Part shown: positions 5,493 through 35,352 of the stretch, piece by piece
Layout: each line of letters begins with the position of its first letter
Position numbering within the stretch: the stretch's first letter is position 1
Source of the DNA: a virus
Lineage: Duplodnaviria > Heunggongvirae > Uroviricota > Caudoviricetes
IMG/VR virus record: IMGVR_UViG_2645727810_000025
Coordinates: 1 to 43,893 of that record
Length of the DNA stretch: 43,893 nucleotides
Reading direction: 5' to 3' (one strand)
Made by a program: the position numbers and the translations under genes
Notes under the pieces: generated by a model
The model's database searches: none
What the model was told of the DNA's origin: nothing
Seen by the model: the letters and a program-made list of their open reading frames with translations, nothing else

Positions 5493-5507
5493 TTACCATT
5501 TTGGTAA
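5493..5507. promoter_or_regulatory. operator-like palindrome TTACCATTTTGGTAA (OL-like site 1)
   Basis: Perfect 5+5 inverted repeat with 5-nt spacer, 14 nt upstream of the leftward operon start. Confidence 0.6.
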
Positions 5508-5568
5508 TACTTGAAGATGCAGGAAAGCCACGAAGTGGTGGTTTCTGCCTGAGCGACGCGCTCCTGTA

Positions 5569-5583
5569 TTACCTTTTGGGTAA
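5569..5583. promoter_or_regulatory. operator-like palindrome TTACCTTTTGGGTAA (OL-like site 2)
   Basis: Same TTACC-N5-GGTAA pattern, followed by TAATC. Confidence 0.55.
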
Positions 5584-5630
5584 TAATCAGATCAAAAAGT
5601 GATTGTGTCAATAGGTATGACGAGAAAAAA

Positions 5631-5645
5631 TTACCATTTTGGTAA
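5631..5645. promoter_or_regulatory. operator-like palindrome TTACCATTTTGGTAA (OL-like site 3)
   Basis: Same pattern; lies between the leftward operon and the 3' end of the repressor gene. Confidence 0.55.
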
Positions 5646-5703
5646 TTGCGTGAGGCGCGAGCTTACCGCCATCGGGCAGGTAAAGCGTCAGAATGGCGGG
5701 GGA

Positions 5704-6300
5704 TTACTTGCTTTTGTTCTGCTCAAACACGAAGTTGATGAATGAGGTGATCTTGTTCTTCTCTTCCTGTGGCAGAGCTGCATACATCCGGTGGTCGTAG
5801 TCGATAACACCAGGAGCGCCGACGGGAATAATCATCTCGTATGCTTCATGCCCGAACGCGCGCGCCAGGGAGGAAAGAACACCGATGGTCGTGCTGACTT
5901 CCGCTTTCATAATCCGGTTAACTGTGGCCGGGCCAATACCAGCTGCAACAGCAACTTTCTTTTCGGATGTCATTTCCGTGTTCTTTCTCATCCAGGCATT
6001 GAGCGTGGCTGCGGCCTGCTTCTCTACAGTCCATTCGCCATCTTCAGTGGCCGGAATAAAGATATCAGCCTGTACTGCGTCCAGTTCGTGATCGACATCA
6101 AGCCAGAACTTTTCTTTGCGCGCCGCTTCTTCAATGATACGCGCGGCATTCGGCCCGATGTTTTTGATGCCAGTGCACCACCGGTTGACCAGGTTCTGCG
6201 AACGCTTCACCCGCTCTGCAAAGCGCAACTGGGTGTCATCGAAATCCCGGCGAATGATTTCGTTAAGGTTTTTGCGTCTTATGTCATAAATACTTTTCAT
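5704..6300 (-). CDS. CI-like phage repressor with two Xre-type helix-turn-helix domains
   Basis: 198 aa; N-terminal HTH (TQLRFAERVKRSQNLVNRW...ARKEKFWLD) and a second HTH-like segment (AVAAGIGPATVNRIMKAEV); no S24 peptidase domain; divergent from the Cro-like gene with palindromic sites on both sides; no SD before the ATG. Confidence 0.7.
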   Translation of the reverse strand: MKSIYDIRRKNLNEIIRRDFDDTQLRFAERVKRSQNLVNRWCTGIKNIGPNAARIIEEAARKEKFWLDVDHELDAVQADIFIPATEDGEWTVEKQAAATLNAWMRKNTEMTSEKKVAVAAGIGPATVNRIMKAEVSTTIGVLSSLARAFGHEAYEMIIPVGAPGVIDYDHRMYAALPQEEKNKITSFINFVFEQNKSK

Positions 6301-6354
6301 AGCTATTGTATTTGTCCATTTAATGTTACCTAACTGACTAAATTTAAATGAATA

Positions 6355-6386
6355 TTACCATAAAGGTAAAGTTACCATAACGGTAA
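6355..6386. promoter_or_regulatory. two adjacent operator-like palindromes (TTACCATAAAGGTAA and TTACCATAACGGTAA), OR-like
   Basis: Tandem TTACC-N5-GGTAA sites with 17-bp centre spacing between the divergent repressor and Cro-like genes; second site followed by TAATCAT. Confidence 0.6.
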
Positions 6387-6401
6387 TAATCATTGATTTT
6401 T

Positions 6402-6416
6402 TCACCAGAAAGGTAA
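6402..6416. promoter_or_regulatory. degenerate operator-like site TCACCAGAAAGGTAA (OR-like site 3)
   Basis: One mismatch in the left half; followed by TAATTCA; 40 bp upstream of the Cro-like ATG. Confidence 0.4.
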
Positions 6417-6455
6417 TAATTCAGATATGAATAGACAGGCTGAGATAAGCAAAAT

Positions 6456-6689
6456 ATGAGTGACGAAAAAAAATTTGATTTCAAAAAGCACTGGCTGGAG
6501 CTGTCTCCTGTTGAGCGTGAAGCATTTGCAGATGAAGCCGGAACCACCAGTCATTACATCCAGACGCACCTGACCGGGCGCCGCAAGATGCCAGGTAAGC
6601 GACTGATGGACGGACTGTTTAAAGCATGTCGTTCCCGCGAATGGACAAAGTCAAAACCTGAATTAGTGCTCTTCTTCTACGACCGATAA
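6456..6689 (+). CDS. Cro/YdaS-like small DNA-binding protein
   Basis: 77 aa; position divergent from the repressor; segment TSHYIQTHLTGRRKMP resembles YdaS/Cro-type HTH proteins. Confidence 0.55.
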   Translation: MSDEKKFDFKKHWLELSPVEREAFADEAGTTSHYIQTHLTGRRKMPGKRLMDGLFKACRSREWTKSKPELVLFFYDR

Positions 6690-6837
6690 CTCTCCCTGAA
6701 CCCATCAATGCCGTCATCCCCTGGCGGCTCCTTCCTGCATAAAACACCTTTCTGGTAATAAAAAACCATATACGGTTGATCTTTTTTCGCCTTAGTGCAA
6801 AATTACCGATATCCATAACAAAAAGGAGGCACCTCCT

Positions 6838-7032
6838 GTGAAGATTGTCACCAGAATGGAGGCAGCAAAAGCTGGCCTTAATCGTTTTTATACCGGTAAA
6901 GAATGCCGAAATGGTCACCGTGCTGAGCGCTACGTTCTGAACGGAACGTGTGTTGAGTGCGCAATGAATAGTGCTCATCGTCACCGTGATGAGTTCGCTG
7001 CTGCGTTGAGGAACGCGCGGGAGGCAACATGA
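6838..7032 (+). CDS. hypothetical small Cys/His-rich protein (64 aa)
   Basis: GTG start 8 nt after a strong SD (AAAGGAGG); C-x5-H...C-x2-C pattern suggests metal binding; stop overlaps next ATG. Confidence 0.5.
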
Positions 7033-7703
7033 ATATCTATCAACGCATCAACGGATCTGACTGGCGCAATATTTGGGTGGTTGGCGATCTGCATGGTTGT
7101 TACACAAACCTGATGGGAAAGCTGGATGACCTTAAGTTCGACCCGGCACAAGACCTGCTTATCTCCGTGGGTGATCTTATCGACCGAGGAACTGAAAACG
7201 TTGAATGCCTGGAGCTTATTACTATGCCATGGTTCCGATCTGTACGTGGCAACCATGAACAGATGATGATTGATGGCCTGTCAGAGCATGGAAACGTCAA
7301 TCACTGGCTGGTAAATGGTGGTGGATGGTTCTTTTATCTCGACTACGAAAAAGAAGTGTTGGCTAAGGCGCTGGTTCACAAAGCTGCTGAGTTACCGCTA
7401 ATCATCGAACTGGTGACCAGCGACCGTAAAGTTGTCATCTGCCACGCTGACTACCCGCACAACGAATATGAGTTCGACAAGCCAGTGCCAGAGGAAATGG
7501 TCATCTGGAACAGAGAACGGATAGCCAATGCGCAAGACGGATATCATCACGAAATCATCGGCGCAGACCTTTTCATCTTTGGTCACACGCCTGCACGTCA
7601 GCCACTGAAATACTCCAACCAGATGTACATCGACACCGGCGCTGTGTTCTGTGGAAACCTGACATTATTACAGTTACAAGGCGAGGTGAATAATGGCCGG
7701 TGA
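7029..7703 (+). CDS. serine/threonine protein phosphatase (lambda PPase / calcineurin-like metallophosphatase)
   Basis: 224 aa with GDLHGC, GDLIDRG and GNHE metallophosphatase motifs; ATG with GGGAGG SD. Confidence 0.85.
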
Positions 7704-8508
7704 CTGGATCAAGATGCGTGCCGACCTGCACACGCACCCTAAAGTTGTCCGCATGGCGTCCGCATTGAAAGCGGACAGATTGCGGATAGTTGGCGGACTA
7801 CATTCCGCATGGTGTCTTTTCGATGTCCACTCTGTTGACGGTTTTCTTGACGGATACAGTGCGGAGACTCTCGACGACCTGATCGGCTTCCCCGGATTCG
7901 CGCGTGCAATGATGGCTGTCGGATGGCTGGAAGAAGAAGGCGAAAGCCTAGTAATGCCGCGCTTTGAAGCCCATAACGGGCAGTCTGCCAAGCGTCGAGC
8001 ACAGGACGCAGACAGGAAGAGAAATGTCCGCAAAGCGTCCGCATCAGAAGCGGACAAAAAGCGGACCAGAGAAGAGAAGAGAAGAGAAGATCTAAAAGAT
8101 AAAACCCCACACATAGGCGAAGCGAAAAATCAGCCTGTGGATAACTCCGGAGGTGGCAAACCAGATCCCCATGCAACAAATTCCGTGATTGATGGATATG
8201 TCCCACCAGGAGGTTCCGGTTCACTGGGTAAATTCACTATGCCGGATAGCTGGACGCCGGATCCTGATTTCACCAAACGAGCTGCGCTATGGGGAGTAAA
8301 CCTTAAAACCGATGTGACGCCATTTGAACTGGCAGATTTCATCACGTACTGGAAAGCCGAGGGCAAAGCATTCCATCACGACCAGTGGCAGCAGAAACTG
8401 GCGCGCAGTGTTCAACTGTCCAGGACAAAGCCAGCGAGAACGCAGCAGAGGGACGTTAACGCAGTACCAGAACCAGACAGCGAGATCCCTCCAGGCTTTC
8501 GCGGTTAA
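7693..8508 (+). CDS. replication protein with DnaT-like C-terminal domain
   Basis: 271 aa; C-terminus ([13 protein letters not shown]...[24 protein letters not shown]...[12 protein letters not shown]) closely parallels the C-terminus of E. coli primosomal protein DnaT as I recall it; ATG with GAGGTG SD. Confidence 0.6.
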
Positions 8509-8548
8509 CACCGGGAGCGCAGTAGCGCATTTTTTTACATCTAATGAA

Positions 8549-8563
8549 TTACCAAAAAGGTAA
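8549..8563. promoter_or_regulatory. operator-like palindrome TTACCAAAAAGGTAA
   Basis: TTACC-N5-GGTAA followed by TAAAAT, 67 bp upstream of the resolvase gene. Confidence 0.5.
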
Positions 8564-8610
8564 TAAAATATGCGCATTACTATTGAAATTAACTCATTTG
8601 TGGTTTTAAA

Positions 8611-8627
8611 TTACCTGGGGGGGGTAA
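8611..8627. promoter_or_regulatory. variant palindrome TTACC-N7-GGTAA (TTACCTGGGGGGGGTAA)
   Basis: Same half-sites with a 7-nt G-rich spacer immediately before the ATG at 8631; the G-run may double as the SD. Confidence 0.3.
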
Positions 8628-8630
8628 ATC

Positions 8631-9095
8631 ATGGCGGCAGTATTAGGGATTGACCCAGGATGCAGAGGATCTCTGGTCCTGATAACTGAGCAGGGCGGAT
8701 ACATCGACCATCTGGCAATGCCGACCATCAAGGTTGGGACCAAGTCCAGAGTCAACGGCGCAGCGGTGGCGGCATGGATAAGGCAGTACGGAATAACTCA
8801 TGCGTATCTGGAGCAGGTGGGCGCAATGCCAGGACAGGGAACGGCGAGCATGTTCACGTTCGGGCATGCAGCTGGCGTGGTGGAGGGGATACTCCAGGGG
8901 CTGAACATCCCATACACGCTGGTAACTCCGCAGTCCTGGAAGAAGTCAGCCGGTCTCATCGGAAGTGACAAGGACGCAGCGCGCAGCAGGGCGATTCAGC
9001 TCTACCCGGAACTCAGGGCGCTGGATGCAAAAGCGAAAGGTCAGGCCATCGCAGATGCGCTGTTAATCGCAAGGTTCGGGATCGGTATCAAATAA
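8631..9095 (+). CDS. RuvC-like Holliday junction resolvase
   Basis: 154 aa; N-terminal GIDPGCRGS motif analogous to the RuvC GIDPG active-site segment. Confidence 0.65.
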   Translation: MAAVLGIDPGCRGSLVLITEQGGYIDHLAMPTIKVGTKSRVNGAAVAAWIRQYGITHAYLEQVGAMPGQGTASMFTFGHAAGVVEGILQGLNIPYTLVTPQSWKKSAGLIGSDKDAARSRAIQLYPELRALDAKAKGQAIADALLIARFGIGIK

Positions 9096-9151
9096 CGATC
9101 CTTTTAGTTATCAAACTAATCAATAACTTATACGGGTAAGCGAGGGTAATA

Positions 9152-9724
9152 ATGGGAAGCAATATCATTGAGTTAGCGAAGTTAGGACATGAGCGCGCGG
9201 CTGAACTGAAGGCATCATGCGGTGCTGTCGACGTGCGCAGCCTGGCGCAACTGATTAGCGATCTGGCCACGCAGCTTGAAGTGCAGTTTGTTTGCTCAAC
9301 CAACATGGCAGTACAGCTCGCTAACGCCGAGAGCAAGTGCAGGGAGCTGGCGGCGGAGAATGGGGAGTTGAAATCATACCGGCCTAGACCTGGTGGTCAG
9401 GTCATGATGGAAGCGCTGGATGCTTTTGAATCGCAAGACGATTACCCAGAAGGCGGCATGATGGACGCCTTTGAACTGCTTTGCTGCAAGCACGTTGAAA
9501 CCCCAGCCACCGACGCTTTCCTGGCTGAAGTGCGGGCGCAGGGCGTGGATGCTGCTATAGAAGCTGCAAAAAATCTGGTGGCCCAAGAATATGAGTATAA
9601 GGATTTCAAAGCGGCGCAGAGTGATTGCTGTATGCACCCTGGTTCAGACCTGGTAGGGAAGGTTGAAATGACTGAGTGGTTAGTTGACTTTGCTGCCCAG
9701 CTTCGCAAAGGAGGCAACCAGTGA
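9152..9724 (+). CDS. hypothetical protein (190 aa)
   Basis: ATG preceded by GAGGGTAATA; acidic, helical-looking; no family recognised. Confidence 0.55.
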   Translation: MGSNIIELAKLGHERAAELKASCGAVDVRSLAQLISDLATQLEVQFVCSTNMAVQLANAESKCRELAAENGELKSYRPRPGGQVMMEALDAFESQDDYPEGGMMDAFELLCCKHVETPATDAFLAEVRAQGVDAAIEAAKNLVAQEYEYKDFKAAQSDCCMHPGSDLVGKVEMTEWLVDFAAQLRKGGNQ

Positions 9725-9990
9725 GTGAGTCAAAATGCCAAATTAATGGCAACAAGATAGAACCGTGCGCGGCGTTGGCAAAATCTCTCGAATATGGAAA
9801 TCCAACATTCAAGAGTAAAGGCATATTTATCCCGGAGCGTGTGAACATAAACACCGGCGAGTCATGCATAGATATTGCTCAAATTCACTCGGGGAAATAT
9901 ATCGGTCGTGGCGTTGCAATGTGCTTTTGCCCGTTCTGTGGTGAAAGTTTGAAAACGTGGGAAGCGGAGGCAGCCAGTGAGCAAAATTGA
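9721..9990 (+). CDS. hypothetical Cys-rich small protein (89 aa)
   Basis: GTG start after AGGAGG SD; CFCPFCGE motif suggests a zinc ribbon. Confidence 0.45.
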   Translation: MSESKCQINGNKIEPCAALAKSLEYGNPTFKSKGIFIPERVNINTGESCIDIAQIHSGKYIGRGVAMCFCPFCGESLKTWEAEAASEQN

Positions 9991-10615
9991 CCATCAGGCA
10001 CTGCGTGAGGCGGCAGAGCAGGCAATGCATGACGACTGGGGATTTGACGCGGACCTTTTCCATGAGCTGGTAACACCATCGATTGTGCTGGAACTGCTGG
10101 ATGAACAGGAAAGAAACCAGCAATACATCAAACGCCGCGACCAGGAGAACGAGGAGATTGCGCTTACGGTTGGGAAGCTGCGTGTTGAGCTTGAAGCAGC
10201 AGAGAACAACCTTATTGATAGTGAATGCCATGTTGCTGAACTGGAAGAAGCTCTACGCGATAAGCAGGCGTTACTTGAAGCCTCAGAAAAGCGCAACGCA
10301 AAATTACAAAGCGAGAATGCATACATCCGCAACCGGTACAAAGAACTGGACCTATTAATCGGGAAAAACATTCTGGTCATGCAGGCTGCCATTATCGAAT
10401 GGCAGGCAACTGGCGACGCTAAGAGCGGACTAGCATGGATTTATAACACACTGTTTGGCCCTGGCGAATTACCGGACGAATCTGAGAAAGATGCTCAGGC
10501 CTACTTTAATCGCAAATATGCACCGATTGACGAAAAGCTTATGGCGCTTCACAAGTGGTTTTGGGAACAAAGTGAAGCCGAGCGCGCCGCTGGCATTCGC
10601 ATCAAAGGAGAGTGA
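9977..10615 (+). CDS. Ead/Ea22-like protein
   Basis: 212 aa; N-terminus (M)SKIDHQALREAAEQA and coiled-coil middle typical of lambdoid Ea22-like proteins; GTG start after GGAGG. Confidence 0.55.
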   Translation: MSKIDHQALREAAEQAMHDDWGFDADLFHELVTPSIVLELLDEQERNQQYIKRRDQENEEIALTVGKLRVELEAAENNLIDSECHVAELEEALRDKQALLEASEKRNAKLQSENAYIRNRYKELDLLIGKNILVMQAAIIEWQATGDAKSGLAWIYNTLFGPGELPDESEKDAQAYFNRKYAPIDEKLMALHKWFWEQSEAERAAGIRIKGE

Positions 10616-10616
10616 G

Positions 10617-10808
10617 ATGAACGGACAAATCTCAATTGTTCGACCGGGAGCATGTGACGATTGCGAGATACGAATGATTATTCGTCTGGCGAGGGGGAAA
10701 ACAATAACTGCTCTCATTACTCCAGAAAATCTCGCATTAGCATTAACCGGAAAGTCAGACCTGCCAGTAGAGCTAAAGCTGCGAAATGTTGAGATTAAGG
10801 TGAAATAG
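10617..10808 (+). CDS. hypothetical small protein (63 aa)
   Basis: ATG 8 nt after AAAGGAG; internal start within the longer track ORF 10455-10808. Confidence 0.45.
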   Translation: MNGQISIVRPGACDDCEIRMIIRLARGKTITALITPENLALALTGKSDLPVELKLRNVEIKVK

Positions 10809-10810
10809 CT

Positions 10811-11206
10811 ATGACCACTATTACCAAAGAGCGACTGCTGACAATCAAGCAGTGGCGCGAAACATACGGACCGGGTAGCAACGTTGTACTGCCAGCAGAA
10901 GAAGCGGAAGAACTGGCACGAATTGCTCTGGCATCGCTGGAAGTCGAGCCGATAGGTTTCCGTTGCAGGCGCAATGATAACCTTGGTGATTGGAGTTACG
11001 TATATCATCGAGAGCCAGATGATTTTGAGCGCAAACATTTAGTGATAGAGGGCATTTACGCCGCCCCTCCAGCGCAAGTAGTACCGGAAGAAAAACCAAT
11101 GCCTAATCCTCTTAGCATGTACGCGGTTGATGCTGTTGCCGCTATTGCAGAGGTGAGAGGCTGGAACGCCTGCCGTGCCGCTATGCTTCAGGGGAAAGGA
11201 GACTGA
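10811..11206 (+). CDS. hypothetical protein (131 aa), shares N-terminal module with the 11416 gene
   Basis: MTTITKE... and ELARIALASLEVEP segments repeated in the downstream paralog; AAGGTG SD. Confidence 0.55.
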   Translation: MTTITKERLLTIKQWRETYGPGSNVVLPAEEAEELARIALASLEVEPIGFRCRRNDNLGDWSYVYHREPDDFERKHLVIEGIYAAPPAQVVPEEKPMPNPLSMYAVDAVAAIAEVRGWNACRAAMLQGKGD

Positions 11207-11207
11207 T

Positions 11208-11405
11208 ATGGATAAAAACACCACTGCTTACTGGAATCTGTCACTTGATACCGAATGCCCAAAATGCGGTCACAATTTCGATCTGCTTTGTGACGCTGAT
11301 TTCTGGGAGTTTTCTGGAGCTAAACAGGCATGTGAAGAAATAAAAGGTTACGAAACATGCTGTCCAGAATGTAACCATGAATTTAAAACAGATTTCGTGT
11401 ATTGA
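11208..11405 (+). CDS. hypothetical zinc-ribbon small protein (65 aa)
   Basis: ATG after AAGGAG; CPKCGH...CCPECNH four-Cys pattern. Confidence 0.5.
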   Translation: MDKNTTAYWNLSLDTECPKCGHNFDLLCDADFWEFSGAKQACEEIKGYETCCPECNHEFKTDFVY

Positions 11406-11415
11406 GGCATAACAA

Positions 11416-12042: not shown

Positions 12043-12299
12043 TGGATGTAAAAGAGAAGGTTTTGCAGGTGATACGTTCCCGTGCGGCCCTGCAAGAGAA
12101 AGCTCTCGGCGGGGAATATCCATTCACGATAGCAACCTGGAATCTGCGGTTGGCAATGGAGAAGGAATTTCCTGATGAAGAATGGCGCTCGGCAGATTTG
12201 CGCAAAATTCTTATGGAGCTGGCTAAAGACGGAACAGTATCTAAAGATACCCATGCCAGCCGGATTGGTCAGGCGGTATGGAGACTGGAGGTGAGGTAA
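12039..12299 (+). CDS. hypothetical protein (86 aa)
   Basis: ATG 7 nt after AGGAGG; overlaps previous stop (ATGA). Confidence 0.5.
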   Translation: MMDVKEKVLQVIRSRAALQEKALGGEYPFTIATWNLRLAMEKEFPDEEWRSADLRKILMELAKDGTVSKDTHASRIGQAVWRLEVR

Positions 12300-12637
12300 T
12301 GGCTAAATCCGCAGCAGAACGCAAAGCCGCGCAGCGGGCCCGCCAGGCTGAATCTGGTAACCGCAAGCTTGAATTGCAACTCGATGAGCAGGAGCATGAG
12401 ATGCTGGCGCGGAACTGCGCCGCCCGGCGCCCTGGTCGTGCGCCGTATGAGATGAGCGAGTACATCGCGTTGCTTATCCGCCAGGATGATGCGCGAGTTC
12501 GTGGCCGTATCAAGTCAATCAGTTCTAACCGCTGTGGTAAGTGCGGCGATTCGCTACCGGTTGAGTCGTGTCCGTGCGACGGTGATTCTGCATGTTGGGT
12601 GACGCGTGGCTGGCATGAGACTAAGTTATCAGTGTGA
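12299..12637 (+). CDS. hypothetical basic protein with C-terminal Cys cluster (112 aa); candidate regulator
   Basis: ATG after GGAGGTGAGG; N-terminus rich in R/K/Q, C-terminus CGKCGDS...CPCDGDSAC; last gene before the packaging genes. Confidence 0.5.
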   Translation: MAKSAAERKAAQRARQAESGNRKLELQLDEQEHEMLARNCAARRPGRAPYEMSEYIALLIRQDDARVRGRIKSISSNRCGKCGDSLPVESCPCDGDSACWVTRGWHETKLSV

Positions 12638-12645
12638 CATGTCAC
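12634..12645. repeat. 12-bp perfect palindrome GTGACATGTCAC (copy 1)
   Basis: Overlaps the TGA stop of the 12299-12637 gene; followed by an intrinsic terminator. Confidence 0.7.
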
Positions 12646-12668
12646 GATATCTACAATAAATTGCAACG

Positions 12669-12694
12669 GCCGCCGACTATGGCGGCTTTGTTTT
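12669..12694 (+). terminator. rho-independent terminator
   Basis: GCCGCC-gactat-GGCGGC hairpin followed by TTTGTTTTG. Confidence 0.6.
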
Positions 12695-12705
12695 GCGTGT
12701 TACTA

Positions 12706-12738
12706 TTACCAAAACGGTAATTATTACTTCGGTGGTAA
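12706..12738. promoter_or_regulatory. operator-like palindrome TTACCAAAACGGTAA plus degenerate second site TTACTTCGGTGGTAA
   Basis: First site followed by TTATTAC; second site ends 3 nt before the terS ATG. Confidence 0.5.
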
Positions 12739-12740
12739 CA

Positions 12741-14812: not shown

Positions 14813-14815
14813 AAA

Positions 14816-14990: not shown

Positions 14991-15002
14991 GTGACATGTC
15001 AC
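14991..15002. repeat. 12-bp perfect palindrome GTGACATGTCAC (copy 2)
   Basis: Contains the TGA stop (reverse strand) of the 14999-15274 gene. Confidence 0.7.
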
Positions 15003-16534: not shown

Positions 16535-16549
16535 TTACCTAAAAGGTAA
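16535..16549. promoter_or_regulatory. operator-like palindrome TTACCTAAAAGGTAA
   Basis: TTACC-N5-GGTAA followed by TATCT; a GGTAATAAT half-site follows at about 16607; 90 bp upstream of the 16640 gene and the portal operon. Confidence 0.5.
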
Positions 16550-16639
16550 TATCTGATGTTATAAGTGTCAATAGCCTACGCTAAATAAATCATATGTGGT
16601 TAAATTGGTAATAATTTAATTGCGTACGGAGCTATTGCT

Positions 16640-19158: not shown

Positions 19159-19866
19159 ATGAATTTGTTTGAACGTCTTCTGCATCGTCGCCTTTGCAAC
19201 GAACAACCTGCTGATGGTGGCGCAGCTCCTGCTGCATCTGAACCTGCTGCATCAACTGGGGATAATCCGGCACCAGCTGGCGATCCGGCTAAATCGGAAG
19301 GCGATAAGTCACAGCCAGGCGCTGAAGGTGACAAACCTCAGGAAGAAAAACCTGCTGATGGTGATAAGCCAGAAGAGAAAAAGCCTGGCGAAGAAAAAGA
19401 GCAGAAGCAGGAAGGCGCGCCGGAGAAATATGAGTTCAAACCAGCCGAAGGACAGGAGCTTGATGCTGCTGCTCTTGAGCAGTTCGAGCCTATCGCCCGT
19501 GAACTGAACCTGACCAATGATCAGGCGCAGAAGATGGTCGACCTGTACGGCACCAAGATCATGCCAATGGTCCAGCAGCAGCAGGCAGAAGCCTGGCAGA
19601 AGACCACCGAGCAGTGGGCTGCTGACGTGAAGGCAGACAAAGAGATCGGCGGCGACAAGCTCACCGGTAACCTGAGCGCTGCACAGCGTGCTCTTGCTCA
19701 GTTCGGTACGCCTGAACTGAAAGAATATCTGGAAGGCACTGGCCTGGGTAATCACCCTGAACTGGTCAAGGCGTTCGTGAAAATCGGTAAAGCCATGTCG
19801 GAAGACGGCATGGTCGATGGCAGTAATCAAGGCCAGCGTAGTGCGGCCGAAGTGCTTTATGGCTAA
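19159..19866 (+). CDS. scaffolding protein
   Basis: 235 aa; acidic, low-complexity, helical (PAAGDPAKSEGDKSQPGAEGDKPQEEKP...); positioned immediately before the major capsid gene; AAGGAG SD. Confidence 0.65.
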   Translation: MNLFERLLHRRLCNEQPADGGAAPAASEPAASTGDNPAPAGDPAKSEGDKSQPGAEGDKPQEEKPADGDKPEEKKPGEEKEQKQEGAPEKYEFKPAEGQELDAAALEQFEPIARELNLTNDQAQKMVDLYGTKIMPMVQQQQAEAWQKTTEQWAADVKADKEIGGDKLTGNLSAAQRALAQFGTPELKEYLEGTGLGNHPELVKAFVKIGKAMSEDGMVDGSNQGQRSAAEVLYG

Positions 19867-19883
19867 TAAGAGAGGATATAACC

Positions 19884-20870
19884 ATGGCTGTTAAAGGCGT
19901 AAATGCGCTGACGCTGGCTGACTGGGCTAAGCGTACTGATCCAAACGGGAAGGTCGATAAGATCGTCGAACTCCTTTCCCAGACCAACGAAATCCTGACG
20001 GACATGATGTTCGTTGAGGGTAACCTGCCAACCGGCCACCGTACTACCGTGCGCTCTGGTTTGCCATCTGCTACCTGGCGTTTGCTTAACTACGGCGTGC
20101 AGCCAAGCAAATCAACTACAGTACAGGTAACCGACACCTGCGGGATGCTGGAAACTTATGCCGAAGTTGACAAGTCACTGGCAGATCTGAACGGCAACAC
20201 CGCTGAATTCCGTCTGTCTGAAGACCGTGCGTTCATCGAAGGCATGAACCAGCAGATGGCTCAGACTCTGTTCTATGGCGATACAAGTGTTAACCCTCAG
20301 CAGTTCATGGGGCTTGCTTCTCGTTATTCCAGCAAATCTGCCGGTAATGGGCAGAACATTATTGATGCTGGCGGTACCGGTACCGACAACACTTCTATCT
20401 GGCTGGTTGTGTGGGGAGAAAACACGGTTCACGGTATTTTCCCGAAAGGTCAGAAAGCAGGATTACAGACTCAGAATCTGGGCGAACAGACGCTTATCGA
20501 TGCTGCTGGTGGTAAATACCAGGGATACCGTACCCACTACAAGTGGGATAACGGACTGGCCCTGCGTGACTGGCGCTACGTTGTTCGCATCGCCAACATC
20601 GATGTGAGCGATCTGTCTGTTCCAGCTTCTGCTGCAAACATCGTCACGATGATGGTTAAAGCGCTGCACCGCGTTCCTAACCTGAAGATGGGTCGCGCGG
20701 CTTTCTACATGAACCGCACTGTTGCCCAGGCACTCGACCTGCAATCTCTGGATAAAGCTTCTCTGGCTCTGTCCGTCAAAGAGACTGAGGGCGAATGGTG
20801 GACCACTTTCCGTGGCATCCCAATCCGTGAAACTGACGCAATTCTGGAAACAGAAGCGCGCGTTGTTTAA
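19884..20870 (+). CDS. major capsid protein
   Basis: 328 aa; position after scaffold, strong SD (GAGAGGAT); partial stem-loop without T-run follows. Confidence 0.75.
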   Translation: MAVKGVNALTLADWAKRTDPNGKVDKIVELLSQTNEILTDMMFVEGNLPTGHRTTVRSGLPSATWRLLNYGVQPSKSTTVQVTDTCGMLETYAEVDKSLADLNGNTAEFRLSEDRAFIEGMNQQMAQTLFYGDTSVNPQQFMGLASRYSSKSAGNGQNIIDAGGTGTDNTSIWLVVWGENTVHGIFPKGQKAGLQTQNLGEQTLIDAAGGKYQGYRTHYKWDNGLALRDWRYVVRIANIDVSDLSVPASAANIVTMMVKALHRVPNLKMGRAAFYMNRTVAQALDLQSLDKASLALSVKETEGEWWTTFRGIPIRETDAILETEARVV

Positions 20871-28807: not shown

Positions 28808-28808
28808 G

Positions 28809-30515
28809 ATGCCTATTTATACAGATGATCCGGGGCAGGGTATAAACCAGCCGTTGTCGAATGCCCAGGCAGGGTTGGGTGAATCACTGCTTTCTTCCCT
28901 GAAAGAGGGATTTAAAGAGGGGCCGGTAGTATCCGGCTATCGTTTCTCCCAGGCTGAACAACTGGCTAACGATCCGAACTCGACCATTGTCGCCAAATCA
29001 GATGCCGATGCTCGCCTGAAAGAGTACGGTGTGAAAAGCATTAACGTGCCGGAAAGTGGAGTCACGCAGTCGTATCTCGATCATGTGATCAGCGAGCGCC
29101 GGGAATCGCTGGCGAAGCAGCAGATCGCCATGTCGGCCCCGTCTGGATGGGTAGCCACTCCGCTTAACTTTGCCGCAAACCTTGCTGGCTCCATGGCTGA
29201 CCCCGGCAACGTGGCGCTGGCGCTGGTCCCGTTCGGTGGAGAAGCGAAAGCGGCTACCATGCTCGGGCGGTTCGGCGAACGCTTGGCTACCGGCGCGCGG
29301 CTTGGCGCTGGCCAGGCCATTGCCACCGTACCGCTGACGGCACAGGCAGCAGCGGCAGAAGGGGATGACTTCACCTACGGCAATGCGCTGGAGAGCACTT
29401 TTTTTAACACCCTGGCTGGCGGGCTTATGCACGCTGGCGGCGGGCTTATCTCTGATGTTGTACGCTCCCGCAGGGCTGGCACAACTGAAAATCCTGCTAC
29501 CTCGCCAGACGCTCAGCCCGTCGCTGATGCGCAGCCAACGCCGGTAGTCACGCCTGACAATATTCCGGCTGGCGTCAATATTCCTGAGGCCGGCACTAAC
29601 GCCGATCTGTCAGCGGCAATCGCGCGGGATGCAGAGGCCTACGCCTACAGCCGCGCCTATGATGATGTCGTGCCGGAATATCTCGCCCGGCAGCAGGAGC
29701 TACAGACCGGGCGCGTCGACAACGTTGCCGATCTGCGCACTGAGCTGACGACCAATAACCGGCAAAGTGAAGCGCTTGACGCTACGCTGGCGCAGCGCAC
29801 GACGGAGTATCAGGCGCAACGTATGAACTTCAAAGCGGCGCGAGCCAGGGCGCAGCGTGATATTCAGGGTGAGAAAGACACCATTGCCGCGCGTAATCAG
29901 GAAATTAACCAGACGCTTGAGCGTAACGCCGCCGCAGAACAGGCGCGCGGCAGAGAGTCGCAACTGTCACGAAAAGAGATCCCCGACGACCTGGCCCCGT
30001 TAATCGATCAGCGCGCACAGCAGATCCGCGAGAGCATGCAGATGTCACCGGTCGCCGGTGCCGTGCGTACAGCTTCGGCAGCGGTGCGGGAGGCAGACTG
30101 GAGCGTAAACCAGCAGGCTTATCGCGGCGCACTGGCGCACATGATGGAAGGTCGCTCTCCGGACATTGAGCCTTTCTACGATCTGCACAAACCAGCGCTA
30201 CGCGAGCGTGCTATCCAACGCATCCAGAATCCTGTGCGGCAGGCTAATGAAGGTTCACGCGCCGTCAGTGAAAGTGCCGATCGTGTGTGGCAGGATACGC
30301 AAAAGGCTGACCACGAAATCACAGCGGCCACTGCCGATCTGGAAAATGAATTCAATATCAGTGACGCGCTGCTGAACGACATTGCCGCAGACAACCCTGA
30401 GCTGGCAGCGTCAATGCGCGAGAACATTGCCGCGATCCGTGCAGAGGCCAGTGACGACTCTATCGGCAAAGCGTATCGCGCTTTCGCCGCCTGTATGATT
30501 AACCGGGGGCTGTAA
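28809..30515 (+). CDS. internal virion / ejection protein
   Basis: 568 aa; position in the ejection-protein block. Confidence 0.55.
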   Translation: MPIYTDDPGQGINQPLSNAQAGLGESLLSSLKEGFKEGPVVSGYRFSQAEQLANDPNSTIVAKSDADARLKEYGVKSINVPESGVTQSYLDHVISERRESLAKQQIAMSAPSGWVATPLNFAANLAGSMADPGNVALALVPFGGEAKAATMLGRFGERLATGARLGAGQAIATVPLTAQAAAAEGDDFTYGNALESTFFNTLAGGLMHAGGGLISDVVRSRRAGTTENPATSPDAQPVADAQPTPVVTPDNIPAGVNIPEAGTNADLSAAIARDAEAYAYSRAYDDVVPEYLARQQELQTGRVDNVADLRTELTTNNRQSEALDATLAQRTTEYQAQRMNFKAARARAQRDIQGEKDTIAARNQEINQTLERNAAAEQARGRESQLSRKEIPDDLAPLIDQRAQQIRESMQMSPVAGAVRTASAAVREADWSVNQQAYRGALAHMMEGRSPDIEPFYDLHKPALRERAIQRIQNPVRQANEGSRAVSESADRVWQDTQKADHEITAATADLENEFNISDALLNDIAADNPELAASMRENIAAIRAEASDDSIGKAYRAFAACMINRGL

Positions 30516-33061
30516 TGGCTAACGAATTTCTGACGCAATGCGAAATGACCGTCAATACGGCTGCCGGGCGCAAGCTGTCTGAGGACGAAATGGAATCTCT
30601 GGTGCGTGACATGAACGACACCACTAACCGGATCCTGGCTGGCAATGAAGCACTGACACTGGAAGAAGCGGCGATGCGCGCCGCGCAGGAGCTTGGCAAC
30701 CGCGAGCAACTGGCGAAAGTAATCGAGGCACGCAACAAGGCCATCAATACGCGCATTGCAGCGCAGCGCCTCGGTGAGCTTCGCCGGACGTGGAAAGACA
30801 GGCCTGACATTGGGCTGGAAGCAATGCTGGTAGGCCGCAATGACGCGCGCACCGGCTCCCGCCGCTCTGTATCGTCTGAGGTGGCCCAGCTGCGCGGGAA
30901 GTATCACGCCGGTATTAACTACGATTTCGACCAGGCCGGGCTGGTTAAATTTATTGCCAGCGGCAGCAACGACCGGGAGATCGCCGACGCCATGTGGCGC
31001 ATCGGTCGCGGACAGAAAACGGACGGCATGACGCCACAATCTGTCAGTGCTGCGAAGATCATCATGAAGTGGCAGGAAACTGCGCGCGTGGATGAAAACC
31101 GTGCTGGTGCCTGGATCGGCAAGATGCCCGGCTACATCGTACGGCAGTCGCATGACATCCTGAAAATTCGTGCCGCCGGGTATGAGTCCTGGCGCAATGC
31201 CATTCTGCCGCGCCTTGATGATATGACATTTGACGGGATCACCGACCGCGATGGATTCCTGCGTGGCGTTTATGATGGCTTGGCCTCCGGCGTGCACCTG
31301 ACATCTGAAAAGCCTGACTGGATGAATGGCTTCAAGGGATCGTCTAACGCGGCGAAGCGCGCCAGCCAGGAGCGCGTGCTGCACTTCAAAGACGGTGTTA
31401 ACTGGCACGAATACAATGAGCAATTCGGGACCGGCAGCCTGCGAGAAGCAGTATTCGGTGGCCTGAACAGCGCGGCGCGCACGACGGGCATGATGCGCGT
31501 ACTGGGCACTAACCCGCAGAACATGTTCAAGTACCTGACAGACACCATCGCCAAAGACGTGAGTAAGCAGAGCAACCCTGCGGCGCTGGCAGATTTCATG
31601 ACCAAAGTTCGCCGGCTGAATCGCACGGTGATGCCTCAGGTAGACGGATCTCTGAATATCCCCGGCAGTGTCGGCTGGGCCAATGCCTCCGCTAACGTGC
31701 GCGGCTGGCTGCGAATGAGTCAGCTCGGCGGCGCGGTTATTTCGTCTTTTAACGACGTGCCGATCTCGGCGACAGAAATGCGGTATCAGGGCCAGAATTT
31801 TATGCAGGCGCTGACCGGCGCAATGAAGGGGCGCTTCTCCCGCTACACCAGTGATGAGCAGAAGGAAATTCTTTCCTCCATCGGCGTTTATTCCGACACG
31901 ATGACGCAAGAGATCATCCGTCGCATGTCCGGCGACGACAGCATGAGCGGGAAGATGGGCCGTGCGCAGCAACTGTTCTTCAAATACAACCTCATGAACT
32001 TCTGGACAGAATCCGGGCGTAACAGCAACGCCATGATGATAACCAACTGGCTGGCGAAGAACGCGGATCAGCAGTTCACGGCGTTGCCGGAAGACCTGCG
32101 CCGCGTGCTGGACCTGCACGGCATAGGTGACGCTGAATGGAATATCTACCGCAGCATGGACATGGCAGACAGCGAAGGCCGCAAATTCATGACGACCAGC
32201 GGAATTCGTGGCGTTCCGGATGAGGTGATAGCCTCATATGTTGAAGGAAAAGGCATGAAGGTCACCGAGCGATCTATTGCCGATGCGAGAGACACGCTGG
32301 AAAGCCAACTTCGTGGGTATATTCTTGACCGACTAAACATCGCTATGTCAGAGCCGGGAGACCGTACGCAGGCGTTTATGAAGATGGGCACTGTACCAGG
32401 AACAGTAGCTGGGGAGGCAATACGTTTCGCTGGTCAGTACAAATCGTTCACTGCGAGTTTCATGCAGAACGTGCTTGGACGTGAGGTATTCGGGCGTGGT
32501 TATACTCCCGCAGGACTGGGTGAGTCGAAAACCGGATCTCTGACGAATGCGCTGCTGCGTAACGGAAAAGGTGCATTCTTGGGGGCGGCAAACCTGTTCG
32601 TCTGGGCAACCATGTTTGGCTATATCTCTATGCAGTCGAAACTATTGCTTAAGGGGCAGACGCCGCGTCCGGCAGATGCCAAGACATTCCTCGCAGCCGC
32701 ATCTCAGGGCGGAGGCCTAGGCATCTTAGGCGACTTCATGTTTGGCGAAGTCAATCGCATGGGGGCTGGTCCAGTGACATCATTGATGGGGCCAGCCGCG
32801 TCGAACGCTGATAGCATTATCACGTTGTTCCAGCAGACAACGCGCGGCGATGCAGACCTGGGTGACTGGTATCGCACCGCGCTGGACAATACGCCTTTCC
32901 TTAACGTGTTCTGGCTGCGCACAGCAATGAATGGTTTAATATTGAACCGTATACAGGATGCGCTTGACCCAGGCTCTTTGGAGCGATATCAGCGCCGGGT
33001 TGAGCGTGAGCAGGGTAACGACTTTCTGATTCCACCATCGCAGTTCATGCTAGGGAAGTAA
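30515..33061 (+). CDS. internal virion / ejection protein
   Basis: 848 aa; coupled to the previous gene; with it, comparable in total length to T7 gp16. Confidence 0.55.
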   Translation: MANEFLTQCEMTVNTAAGRKLSEDEMESLVRDMNDTTNRILAGNEALTLEEAAMRAAQELGNREQLAKVIEARNKAINTRIAAQRLGELRRTWKDRPDIGLEAMLVGRNDARTGSRRSVSSEVAQLRGKYHAGINYDFDQAGLVKFIASGSNDREIADAMWRIGRGQKTDGMTPQSVSAAKIIMKWQETARVDENRAGAWIGKMPGYIVRQSHDILKIRAAGYESWRNAILPRLDDMTFDGITDRDGFLRGVYDGLASGVHLTSEKPDWMNGFKGSSNAAKRASQERVLHFKDGVNWHEYNEQFGTGSLREAVFGGLNSAARTTGMMRVLGTNPQNMFKYLTDTIAKDVSKQSNPAALADFMTKVRRLNRTVMPQVDGSLNIPGSVGWANASANVRGWLRMSQLGGAVISSFNDVPISATEMRYQGQNFMQALTGAMKGRFSRYTSDEQKEILSSIGVYSDTMTQEIIRRMSGDDSMSGKMGRAQQLFFKYNLMNFWTESGRNSNAMMITNWLAKNADQQFTALPEDLRRVLDLHGIGDAEWNIYRSMDMADSEGRKFMTTSGIRGVPDEVIASYVEGKGMKVTERSIADARDTLESQLRGYILDRLNIAMSEPGDRTQAFMKMGTVPGTVAGEAIRFAGQYKSFTASFMQNVLGREVFGRGYTPAGLGESKTGSLTNALLRNGKGAFLGAANLFVWATMFGYISMQSKLLLKGQTPRPADAKTFLAAASQGGGLGILGDFMFGEVNRMGAGPVTSLMGPAASNADSIITLFQQTTRGDADLGDWYRTALDNTPFLNVFWLRTAMNGLILNRIQDALDPGSLERYQRRVEREQGNDFLIPPSQFMLGK

Positions 33062-33062
33062 T

Positions 33063-33434
33063 ATGAACAGAATTATATTAATGACTCTTCTTATTTTTTT
33101 TGTTGGAAAAGCTTCTGCTGATACTACATCACCTTTAATGATTCAGCCTAAAAATGGAGAAACATTGGAGGATTCTAAAAAGCATACAATGGAATACTTT
33201 GGATGCATAAAAGGGCAGGCTGTAAAGTATGCCAAGACAGGAGAAAGTGTTGATTCCATATCAAAAGCTTCGGTTGTGTCATGCGAGTCATACATACCAA
33301 TGATCGCCGAGTCGAATATATATTATTTAAACTCTTCGCAAGATGGTAAGCGGCAATTTACAGAAAGGCTAAAATCTGATGGTGAGAGATTAGCCACAAA
33401 ATTTGCCATGGATGAGAAGATTAAAAATAAATAG
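33063..33434 (+). CDS. secreted/periplasmic hypothetical protein (AT-rich moron)
   Basis: 123 aa with signal peptide MNRIILMTLLIFFVGKASA/DT; visibly lower GC than the flanking structural genes. Confidence 0.6.
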   Translation: MNRIILMTLLIFFVGKASADTTSPLMIQPKNGETLEDSKKHTMEYFGCIKGQAVKYAKTGESVDSISKASVVSCESYIPMIAESNIYYLNSSQDGKRQFTERLKSDGERLATKFAMDEKIKNK

Positions 33435-33442
33435 GTGACCAC

Positions 33443-33739
33443 ATGCAAGCTATTGGTTTCATTGTTTACATAGTTGTTGGTCTTTTTCAGTTGGCTGCGA
33501 TCATGGCTGGTCTTGAATCGTGGTGGGGACTGCACTGGATAGTGGCTGCACCCATTGCTTTCATCGTTAGTTATATCCCGTTGGTCGGTTCCATTGTTGG
33601 AATGGTTGGCGCTGTCGACGTATGGCGTTGGGAATGGTGGCAGGCAGGGCTTCTTTTCTTTGGCGGCCTGGTTTTTGCTATTGCGTGCGGGGGAATGTCT
33701 TCGTTCTTCGAATGGCTATCCTTCAGGAAAAGAGCGTGA
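33443..33739 (+). CDS. small integral membrane protein (98 aa, about 3 TM segments)
   Basis: Hydrophobic Trp-rich sequence; ATG after AGGTGA; stop lies inside the GTGACATGTCAC palindrome. Confidence 0.6.
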   Translation: MQAIGFIVYIVVGLFQLAAIMAGLESWWGLHWIVAAPIAFIVSYIPLVGSIVGMVGAVDVWRWEWWQAGLLFFGGLVFAIACGGMSSFFEWLSFRKRA

Positions 33740-33747
33740 CATGTCAC
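33736..33747. repeat. 12-bp perfect palindrome GTGACATGTCAC (copy 3)
   Basis: Overlaps the TGA stop of the 33443-33739 gene; followed by a terminator. Confidence 0.7.
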
Positions 33748-33749
33748 AA

Positions 33750-33776
33750 AGGCCGCCGAAGCGGCCTTAATTTTTT
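33750..33776. terminator. bidirectional intrinsic terminator
   Basis: AGGCCGC-cgaa-GCGGCCT hairpin followed by TAATTTTTT; between convergent genes. Confidence 0.65.
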
Positions 33777-33927
33777 AACGCCCGCCAGGACGAGAATCGG
33801 CAGAACGACCACCGCAGCGTGATCCATCCGAAGCCGTATCGCTGTCATGCTGGCAGTTTCCAGCAAAAGCTTGTGTAGCAGAACCCAGAGACAACAGAAC
33901 AAACAGCACTGCTAATGCTTTTTTCAT
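33775..33927 (-). CDS. candidate small secreted protein (50 aa), below the ORF-track cutoff
   Basis: My own translation: MKKALAVLFVLLSLGSATQAFAGNCQHDSDTASDGSRCGGRSADSRPGGR; canonical signal peptide with AFA cleavage motif; weak SD. Confidence 0.4.
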   Translation of the reverse strand: MKKALAVLFVLLSLGSATQAFAGNCQHDSDTASDGSRCGGRSADSRPGGR

Positions 33928-33995
33928 TTCTTAATTCCATGTGTAGGCCACTAAATTATGGCGAAGAATTGTAGCGCGTCCATGCGCTACCGTCA

Positions 33996-34685
33996 TCAGA
34001 ACTTACCAGTCATGCTGTTGATGTACTGCACATGAGTCTGGATATCGCGCAGGCATTTACTGGCACCTACGATGTAGCTCATCATGGCCGTGAACTCTGC
34101 TACAGCACCTTCAACATCATGTCCGTCGGCGTCCATCTTCCGCAGCAGGTCCATCAGCATCGATCGCTCCGTCAGGCCAAGAACGCCTTCAGGTGAATGG
34201 ATGTGTTCACGGTAGTTCGGCTTGAGTGGTGCGCTGTATTCCTGTTTCTCTTCCGTTTTCATCGCTTCCAGAATGGCGGGCATGAAGCTGGCCACAACCT
34301 TTTGCGCTTTGTCTGCCGGTGATAATTCTTCACGAACGTAGCGACCGGTGCGACGTATCTGCGGGAGAACTTCGCCAGTTACCCATTTGCGGAAACGATA
34401 GGGGATAGTACCAGGAGTTACCGCATCGCGGCAGCGCAGGATCAGAGTGTAGAGGCCGGATTCAGAGATGATGAGGGTATTAGGGTTCCCTCGTTTTCCG
34501 TCGGTTAAAGCGACGGTATTCTTTTCGTCGTCATCCAATTTAAGCAGAGCATCACGGTTGTTTGATATACCAAGAGCATTACATACATCTAACGCAATAA
34601 ACCATGGCTCGCCGTCGATGATGATTGCACGAATATCGGCTTGCGATTCGAAAGAAAAAACTGAAGTATTTTTTTGAGTTGTCAT
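33996..34685 (-). CDS. phage antirepressor, Bro-N domain protein
   Basis: 229 aa from ATG at 34685 (AAGGTG SD; the track's first codon at 34694 is GTG); N-terminal Bro-N pattern (FSFESQADIRAIIIDGEPWFIALDVCNALGI). Confidence 0.7.
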   Translation of the reverse strand: MTTQKNTSVFSFESQADIRAIIIDGEPWFIALDVCNALGISNNRDALLKLDDDEKNTVALTDGKRGNPNTLIISESGLYTLILRCRDAVTPGTIPYRFRKWVTGEVLPQIRRTGRYVREELSPADKAQKVVASFMPAILEAMKTEEKQEYSAPLKPNYREHIHSPEGVLGLTERSMLMDLLRKMDADGHDVEGAVAEFTAMMSYIVGASKCLRDIQTHVQYINSMTGKF

Positions 34686-34843
34686 AGTGATCACCTTTTA
34701 GTCTGGTTAATCACCACCGGAGGTTCCAATCTCGGAGGTGGTGAACTGTGCAGGGTTGGAACTACCGGCTAAAAGGACCCGGCGCACCTTTCGGTGCCCC
34801 CACACAGCCCACCATAATGCGAATGTGGCCGTGCTTAACGCAT

Positions 34844-34945
34844 AAAAAAACCGCTTGCGCGGTGAATGCGCCTTTTAGTATCCGGGGTTCCAATCCCGGC
34901 ACTGGATTTTGCCAGTGCCTGATCACTATGGCACAAGTATTTTGC
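34844..34945 (-). ncRNA. candidate small regulatory RNA upstream of the antirepressor gene (C4-antisense-like architecture)
   Basis: Minus-strand order: palindromic promoter-like site (34955-34969), then 8-bp stem-loop GGCACUGG/CCAGUGCC, 5-bp stem-loop with loop AUUGGAAC, then CCGC-GCAA-GCGG hairpin plus U7; the loop motif GAUUGGAAC recurs in a hairpin at 34715-34745 in the antirepressor 5' UTR. Confidence 0.3.
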
Positions 34946-34954
34946 GTTGTAAAT

Positions 34955-34969
34955 TTACCGTAAAGGTAA
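34955..34969. promoter_or_regulatory. operator-like palindrome TTACCGTAAAGGTAA
   Basis: TTACC-N5-GGTAA followed by TAATAAG; upstream of the candidate RNA and antirepressor. Confidence 0.5.
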
Positions 34970-35000
34970 TAATAAGCGCATAGTGTATGATATTTCAACC

Positions 35001-35261
35001 TTATGTGGTTTGTCTTCGTAGCTGTTCAACACAGTAATCGAGATGTGTCTGCACATCCTTCATGGATAGCTGTGAGCTGGTGACATAGTTCACCAGTGCA
35101 GTAAGTTCGGCCAGCGGCCCGTCGACGTTGAACCCGTCTTTATCAAGTTCCCGCAATAAAGTCATAAGGTGCGAGTTCTCCACCAGGGATATAACGCCTC
35201 CCGGCGTGTGTACTCTTTCATAAAATCCATCTTCCAGTGGGTGGTGATACCGCTGTTGCAT
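35001..35261 (-). CDS. small protein paralogous to the antirepressor C-terminal domain (86 aa)
   Basis: ATG at 35261 with GGAG SD (the track start at 35279 is TTG); HTPGGVISLVENSHLMTLLRELDKDGFNVDGPLAELTALVNYV aligns with HSPEGVLGLTERSMLMDLLRKMDADGHDVEGAVAEFTAMMSYI of the 33996 gene. Confidence 0.55.
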   Translation of the reverse strand: MQQRYHHPLEDGFYERVHTPGGVISLVENSHLMTLLRELDKDGFNVDGPLAELTALVNYVTSSQLSMKDVQTHLDYCVEQLRRQTT

Positions 35262-35337
35262 TAACCATTCTCCATACAAACACTGTATATATATACATAT
35301 ATCAGATGAACCACTGTTTCACCAGTATGATTTTTAA

Positions 35338-35352
35338 TTACCTGTGAGGTAA
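35338..35352. promoter_or_regulatory. operator-like palindrome TTACCTGTGAGGTAA
   Basis: TTACC-N5-GGTAA followed by TAACT; in the divergent region about 100 bp upstream of the tail fibre gene. Confidence 0.5.

Follow-up and report, generated by a model that had tools for sequence, protein, structure and literature searches.

The 43,893-nucleotide virus record IMGVR_UViG_2645727810_000025 carries many copies of one short palindrome, TTACC-N5-GGTAA, ahead of early, packaging, structural and antirepressor genes, which raises the question of what these copies do and which protein reads them. The record was analyzed at its full length and is referred to here as the window. It represents a temperate podophage of the epsilon15/SPC32H type, genus Uetakevirus, and positions 5300-9300 are about 94% identical to the Salmonella phages epsilon15, SPN1S, SPC32H and PAT1. 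The palindromes are very probably operators of the phage's immunity repressor Rep, through which the lytic transcription units would be silenced directly. A first-pass annotation made from the sequence alone had proposed a single regulator, the repressor encoded at 5704-6300, acting at many dispersed promoters. That proposal is supported by the repressor annotation of the epsilon15 genome and by the near-identity of Rep to the repressor of SPC32H.

Recurrence of the palindrome

Exact matches to TTACC-N5-GGTAA start at positions 5493, 5569, 5631, 6355, 6372, 8549, 12706, 16535, 34955 and 35338 of the window, and these are the same ten good copies that had been listed in the first-pass annotation. 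Dinucleotide-preserving shuffles of the window yield 0.02 copies on average, with none of 100 shuffles reaching ten, in agreement with the earlier estimate that well under one copy is expected by chance. A blind scan of all palindromes composed of a 5-mer, a gap and its reverse complement ranks TTACC-N5-GGTAA first in the window. When up to one mismatch is allowed, the count rises to 15 palindromes against 0.68 expected. The variants that had been reported at 6402, 8611 and 12724 are all real. Those at 6402 (TCACC..GGTAA) and 12724 (TTACT..GGTAA) are intergenic one-mismatch copies that each lie beside exact copies, and TTACC-N7-GGTAA at 8611 is the sole copy in the window with another spacer length. 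The remaining one-mismatch matches, at 12526, 25706 and 26352, are within long open reading frames and look like chance occurrences.

All copies of the palindrome in the window fall between genes, as had been claimed, and they are spread over seven intergenic regions. The curated gene map of epsilon15 agrees, since only 6.6% of that genome is non-coding, yet 11 of its 11 exact copies are found in non-coding DNA. Base counts over 51 distinct sites from six genomes extend the consensus to a 17-bp palindrome, ATTACC-N5-GGTAAT, with an A/T-rich spacer. Two details of the earlier description needed correction. Half-sites reading GGTAATAAT had been placed at 6754, 16607 and 35398, of which only the second has that sequence, the others being GGTAATAAA at 6754 and GGTAATAGA at 35398. 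A TAAT(A/T)AT extension resembling a -10 element, described as usual, is present at about half of the sites, and at two of the promoters discussed below (PL and the Bro promoter) it forms the predicted -10 hexamer for leftward and not for rightward transcription.

The exact palindrome was not found in 200 kb of the E. coli K-12 chromosome (four segments of 50 kb), which served for the recommended comparison with a host because the window holds no host flank. This absence makes a common host-factor site unlikely.

Conservation and prior annotation in related phages

The palindrome is also the top-ranked one in five other Uetakevirus genomes (epsilon15, phiV10, SPC32H, Klebsiella phage BUCT711 and Enterobacter phage Tyrion), each with 8-11 exact copies at the same intergenic positions, which bears out the expectation that the sites would be conserved in relatives. 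Pairwise identity at syntenic sites, calculated for seven loci in up to five genomes, is 99.4% for the ten half-site positions, 59% for the spacer and 58% for the 12-bp flanks. This pattern suggests that the half-sites are under strong purifying selection across four host genera.

The epsilon15 record AY150271.2 contains seven features labeled ‘protein_bind: repressor / lysogeny’, and each lies on a copy of the palindrome. Three are located to the left of the repressor gene (32479-32632), and one each before terS, gp3/portal, the tailspike gene and the resolvase gene (Table 1). All seven have an exact counterpart in the window, at 5493, 5569, 5631, 12706, 16535, 35338 and 8549, respectively. 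Control by one repressor at dispersed early, packaging and structural sites is thus already on record for the type phage, and the finding is known in substance, being a known system in a new isolate. Further epsilon15 sites carry no annotation in AY150271.2, namely the right-side sites at 33341, 33358 and 33388, a site upstream of the lysis genes (24704), the proximal resolvase site (35969) and the second terS site (30). The list in the first-pass annotation is somewhat more complete than that record. A full-text literature search, whose coverage did not include the primary epsilon15 and SPC32H papers, returned nothing specific on the motif or on operators in Uetakevirus.

Phages of Salmonella, E. 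coli, Klebsiella and Enterobacter all share the same half-sites, with repressor identity down to 42%. Such invariance despite divergence of the repressor is unusual for phage immunity and hints that a large number of dispersed sites freezes the specificity.

Rep as the probable reader of the sites

There is a high probability that Rep reads the palindromes. The protein matches SPC32H Rep (PDB 5D50) over its full length with 98.5% identity, and its residues 109-150 correspond to Pfam HTH_3, a helix-turn-helix (HTH) family. The N-terminal domain of this repressor binds DNA, the middle HTH_3-like domain mediates dimerization and the C-terminal domain mediates tetramerization and Ant binding (PMC9986798). 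According to the secondary literature, SPC32H-type Rep binds to palindromic DNA in tetrameric form and only weakly as a dimer, each DNA-binding pair is contributed by different dimers, and the antirepressor Ant breaks the tetramer. The two DNA-binding ends of the tetramer are about 100 Angstrom apart, and the mechanism of repression is described as not extensively characterized (PMC9986798). A peptidase S24 autocleavage domain was not detected in the 198-residue protein, for which Pfam gives HTH families only.

Outside the epsilon15 group the repressors are 43-65% identical. Within the domain at the N terminus that binds DNA, the stretch N36-L-V-N-R-W41 (NLVNRW) is invariant in homologs down to 43% identity, which fits the invariant half-site.

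Arrangement of the proposed operators and predicted promoters

Promoters were predicted by consensus scan, and only individual predictions whose geometry repeats at several operators were used. Transcription is predicted to start near 5576 (leftward), 6427, 8619, 16621, 34962 (leftward) and 35415. As had been reported, three copies of the palindrome flank the repressor gene on each side, where they overlap the predicted divergent early promoters PL and PR. The left-side copies are spaced by 62 and 76 bp. The copies said to precede the resolvase gene, terS, the portal operon, the antirepressor gene and the tail-fiber (tailspike) gene are likewise all in place. Coordinates and counterparts are collected in Table 1.

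Table 1. Proposed operators, predicted promoters and associated genes and RNAs in the window
Feature	Position	Strand	Context	Evidence or counterpart
Left-side operator 3, exact	5493..5507		PL leader, 14 bp upstream of ATG of 49-residue gp37 homolog	epsilon15 feature 32479-32494
Left-side proximal operator, exact	5569..5583		Abuts PL -10, covers predicted start	epsilon15 feature 32554-32570
Predicted PL promoter	5583..5611	-	TTGACA 5611-5606, 17-nucleotide spacer, GATTAT 5588-5583	10/12 matches, consensus scan only
Left-side distal operator, exact	5631..5645		19 bp upstream of PL -35; 62 bp from proximal operator	epsilon15 feature 32616-32632
rep, immunity repressor, 198 residues	5704..6300	-		195/198 identical to SPC32H Rep, PDB 5D50, E 6e-129
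Right-side operator, exact	6355..6369		Between rep and cro-like gene	epsilon15 33341, not annotated there
Right-side operator, exact	6372..6386		17 bp from 6355 site; ends 6 bp before PR -35	
Predicted PR promoter	6393..6420	+	TTGATT 6393-6398, 16-nucleotide spacer, AATAAT 6415-6420	Consensus scan
Right-side operator, one mismatch (TCACC)	6402..6416		Within PR spacer and -10	
gp39 homolog, Cro-like HTH protein, 77 residues	6456..6689	+		phrog_35 ‘transcriptional repressor’
Distal resolvase operator, exact	8549..8563		19 bp upstream of -35	epsilon15 feature 35906-35922
Predicted promoter of RuvC-like resolvase operon	8583..8612	+	TTGAAA 8583-8588, 18-nucleotide spacer, TAAATT 8607-8612	
Proximal resolvase operator	8611..8627		7-nucleotide G-run spacer (TTACCTGGGGGGGGTAA); 62 bp from distal site	5-nucleotide spacer in relatives
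terS operator, exact	12706..12720		Between terminator-like hairpin (12668-12687) and terS	epsilon15 feature 12-27
Second terS operator, one mismatch	12724..12738		Overlaps terS ribosome-binding site; terS ATG 12741	
gp3/portal structural-operon operator, exact	16535..16549		Upstream of operon	epsilon15 feature 2931-2947
GGTAATAAT half-site and -10-like element	16607..16615	+	Portal-operon promoter	
Bro-N antirepressor, 232 residues	33996..34694	-		Pfam Bro-N; phrog_130 and phrog_450
C4 antisense RNA	34734-34819	-		Rfam 77.1 bits, above gathering threshold
isrK-like small RNA	34844-34918	-		Rfam 76.1 bits, above gathering threshold
Operator, exact	34955..34969		Directly downstream of -10 of leftward Bro promoter	phiV10 20497, Tyrion 21393
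Predicted Bro promoter	34969..34998	-	TTGAAA 34998-34993, 18-nucleotide spacer, TATTAT 34974-34969	10/12 matches
ant, small antirepressor, 86 residues, SPC32H Ant homolog	35001..35261	-	Syntenic with SPC32H ant 19676-19936	phrog_450, E 1e-44
LexA box beside ant	35283..35298		Degenerate, CTGTATATATATACAT	
Operator, exact	35338..35352		Divergent ant/tailspike control region	epsilon15 feature 19895-19911
GGTAAT half-site (GGTAATAGA)	35398..35408	+	Overlaps TAGAAT -10 of predicted tailspike promoter	

At the PL, resolvase and Bro promoters the proximal operator abuts the -10 hexamer and covers the predicted start, a position implying that bound Rep would block RNA polymerase sterically. The layout at the resolvase promoter is the mirror image of that at PL. 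At both loci the paired operators are 62 bp apart from start to start in all six genomes, apart from a single instance of 63 bp, and the DNA between them has diverged among relatives. A spacing of 62 bp (about six helical turns) suits a tetramer with two DNA-binding pairs, so one Rep tetramer may bridge both operators cooperatively. In the portal-operon promoter, a full site at the position of the half-site would likewise begin 62 bp after the operator at 16535. The proximal resolvase operator of the window deviates in that a run of eight G nucleotides gives it a 7-nucleotide spacer, compared with 5 nucleotides in epsilon15, phiV10, BUCT711 and Tyrion (four of four). The longer spacer might reflect either natural slippage or a sequencing error in the homopolymer, and Rep may be unable to bind there.

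These arrangements suggest the following model. In a lysogen, Rep would occupy the three sites to the left and the three to the right of its own gene and thereby shut both PL and PR. Rep would further bind in the promoter or leader regions of terS, the tailspike gene and the resolvase and portal/structural operons, as well as at a second antirepressor module consisting of isrK, C4 and a Bro-N/Ant gene. Each lytic transcription unit would then be silenced directly and not through a cascade alone. During induction, the small Ant protein, normally repressed by LexA, would dismantle the Rep tetramer, and loss of Rep would de-repress the second, Bro-N/Ant-like antirepressor, with possible positive feedback.

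Several points weigh against Rep as the reader and silencer at every site. The epsilon15 ‘repressor’ features may be in-silico predictions. Covariation between repressor and operator was uninformative for phiV10, Tyrion and BUCT711, whose repressors are 42-64% identical and whose half-sites are all the same; with both the half-site and NLVNRW invariant, a covariation test is impossible. Promoter predictions as a class are not enriched over shuffled sequence. The site at 5493 and the terS pair (12706/12724) are not at recognizable promoters, and the terS sites may serve as a roadblock or control a weak promoter. Finally, the gene for another conserved HTH protein, gp39, adjoins the sites.

Alternative explanations

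The gp39 gene is the first of the rightward early operon, and its product, which contains an invariant stretch AGTTSHYIQ, may also read the operators, or else the second motif described below. A stronger form of this idea, in which gp39 is the main or an additional reader of the palindrome and the dispersed copies serve the lytic program and not lysogenic silencing, is unlikely. It draws on the small size and conservation of this HTH protein, its assignment to a family of transcriptional repressors, the position of its gene directly to the right of the three right-side sites, and the precedent of lambda Cro, which shares operators with CI. In addition, the invariance of the motif is better matched by gp39 (65-97% identical across the genus) than by Rep (43-98%). 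However, sharing of sites with Rep would be compatible with their being Rep operators, and gp39 as the sole reader would leave Rep without operators even though binding to palindromic DNA has been reported for it. In the epsilon15 record the curators attributed the sites to the repressor, and a second palindrome, CATATGTGGTT, is available as a target for gp39 or for an activator.

It is improbable that the palindrome is instead a positive promoter element, used by a phage activator for middle or late transcription, or a host-factor site. Copies do stand ahead of tailspike, packaging and structural genes, the promoters of which have no good -35 element, and the right half is often continuous with a -10-like TAATAAT. 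Nevertheless, the copies cluster most densely on either side of the repressor gene, where they overlap strong early promoters that do not require an activator. At PL, resolvase and Bro the site covers the start region, which is a repressing position, and the late promoters have a different motif in their -35 region. For a host factor, the lack of any copy in the 200 kb of E. coli sequence is unfavorable.

It is very improbable that the palindromes act as RNA hairpins in processing or termination, or that they are DNA signals for methylation, replication or packaging. In favor of such roles, the sites are inverted repeats, two of them adjoin terS, where pac sites are frequent, and the phage encodes methyltransferases. 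The hairpin version was rejected because the predicted hairpins are weak (-4.1 to -4.5 kcal/mol) and no compensating change restores pairing in the one-mismatch variants. The half-site is moreover fixed in its sequence, several copies are upstream of predicted starts and so would be untranscribed from those promoters, and dispersal over at least seven intergenic regions fits neither a pac site nor an origin.

The antirepressor region

The LexA box beside ant reads CTGT-N8-ACAT in the window, compared with CTGT-N8-ACAG in epsilon15, SPC32H, phiV10 and Tyrion (four of four). In the aligned ant-tailspike region, the sole difference between SPC32N and SPC32H is a CTG to CTT change in the other half of the LexA box, and this change is reportedly what makes SPC32N lytic. 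By its sequence, the window phage may have weakened LexA control, with Ant poorly repressed.

The isrK-like RNA, of an Hfq-binding type, and the C4 RNA are located in tandem between the operator-covered Bro promoter and the Bro-N gene. The C-terminal 80 residues of the Bro-N protein belong to phrog_450, the PHROG family that also contains the small Ant. The phage thus appears to encode two Ant-type domains under different controls, with LexA acting on one and Rep together with C4 RNA on the other. The isrK-anrP locus of Gifsy-1 has a similar arrangement.

Comparison with known systems

The system is a member of the Rep-Ant family known from epsilon15, SPN1S and SPC32H, with which it shares the repressor, the palindrome and the intergenic positions of the sites. 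As in epsilon15 and SPC32H, the small ant gene and the tailspike gene diverge, and a LexA box, degenerate in the window, adjoins ant. The window phage differs from these two phages by the extra operator at 34955 and its associated isrK/C4/Bro-N-Ant module, which is present in phiV10 and Tyrion. Because it lacks the serotype-conversion module, it has, unlike epsilon15, no operator ahead of the lysis genes. The 7-nucleotide spacer of the proximal resolvase operator and the degenerate LexA box set it apart from its relatives.

Phage P1 has C1 operators dispersed over its genome and an immI region organized as c4-icd-ant. The first-pass annotation had likened the sites to those of P1 C1, and the analogy holds for the scattering of operators over many operons and for the control by one operator of a promoter from which C4 RNA and then an antirepressor are expressed. 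It does not hold for the symmetry of the sites or the repressor family, since P1 operators are asymmetric 17-mers bound by a C1-family protein and the window sites are symmetric and accompany an XRE-type/HTH_3 repressor. P1 late genes are moreover controlled indirectly via Lpa, whereas the structural operons of the window have their own operator.

The likeness to lambda OL/OR is similarly partial. Shared features include three sites on each side of the repressor gene, overlap with divergent early promoters and a Cro-like gene as the first gene rightward. The autocleaving repressor of lambda has no parallel, since the window Rep has no detected S24 domain, its homolog is tetrameric and induction proceeds by antirepressor. 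The left-side sites are 62 and 76 bp apart and not adjacent, and many operators are outside the immunity region.

Stoperators are asymmetric, act on elongation and depend on orientation. The L5 gp71 stoperators and the phiC31 inverted repeats resemble the present sites in being many copies of a repressor site within short intergenic gaps of early and late regions. The terS sites and 5493 are in transcribed leaders, where a roadblock is conceivable. The analogy to mycobacteriophage stoperators nonetheless fails on symmetry and position, given that the window sites are symmetric and mostly overlap or flank promoter cores, with only 5493 and 12706/12724 in leaders.

If the model is correct, this group of podophages silences each lytic operon directly by the master repressor and not only through an early-to-late cascade, which bears on the quietness and induction of prophages in Salmonella, E. 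coli, Klebsiella and Enterobacter. What the present analysis adds is a fuller list of sites, with the right-side operators that lack annotation in epsilon15, together with the conserved clamp geometry of 62 bp, the isrK/C4/Bro-Ant module under operator control and a motif that may be an activator site. Work on the SPC32H Rep-Ant model system could draw on these details. The residual novelty consists of three leads: the clamp geometry, the second promoter motif and the half-site that is frozen across diverged repressors.

A second promoter motif and a possible two-input design

In the portal, tailspike and lysis promoters the place of a good -35 element is taken by CATATGTGGTT or a close variant. 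The variant at the lysis promoter, AACCATATATGGTT, is itself a palindrome. Copies of the second motif are found at 6767-6777, 8595-8605, 16591-16601, 35382-35392 and 38249-38259, and its locations include the spacer of the resolvase promoter and a position upstream of gp40. A -10-like hexamer follows the motif at the portal, tailspike and lysis promoters, and at the first two of these it is fused to the GGTAAT half-site. The motif is conserved locus by locus in most of the five other Uetakevirus genomes, and its distance from the upstream operator is constant within each locus across the genus. The enrichment of the co-motif CATWTRYGGTT is post hoc, as the pattern was derived from its own instances, and is indicative only, a lead and not a result. 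CATATGTGGTT is a candidate activator site, which would make the late promoters both Rep-repressed and activator-dependent, and gp39 and a PerC-like protein (1631-2014) are candidates for its binder.

A further reading, offered tentatively and more doubtful than probable, is that the operators belong to an undescribed promoter design of fixed geometry with two inputs, a Rep-tetramer clamp and a CATATGTGGTT activator element. With its ends about 100 Angstrom apart, one Rep tetramer could hold the promoter between the operators that flank it at a distance of 62 bp. At the portal and tailspike promoters, the full site together with the GGTAAT half-site at the -10 position would take the clamp role. 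About a dozen sites interlocked in this way could explain why the half-site was frozen while Rep diverged to 42%.

Integration module and a third palindrome

The gene order of the window is that of the phage form, with the attP core ATTGAGTGGGAATGATT at 40080 followed by the integrase gene. The integrase (40401-41591) is of the P4 type and has an Arm-DNA-binding domain. Positions 40100-43893, which contain the integrase gene and the two following open reading frames, were not matched in megablast by the epsilon15-like phages to which the remainder of the window aligns, which points to an exchange of the integration module to the right of the attP core.

A third palindrome, GTGACATGTCAC, is present in three exact copies (12634-12645, 14991-15002 and 33736-33747) compared with 0.12 expected. 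Each copy is located at the end of an operon, just before a terminator-like hairpin, and the palindrome is conserved in epsilon15, phiV10, SPC32H and BUCT711.

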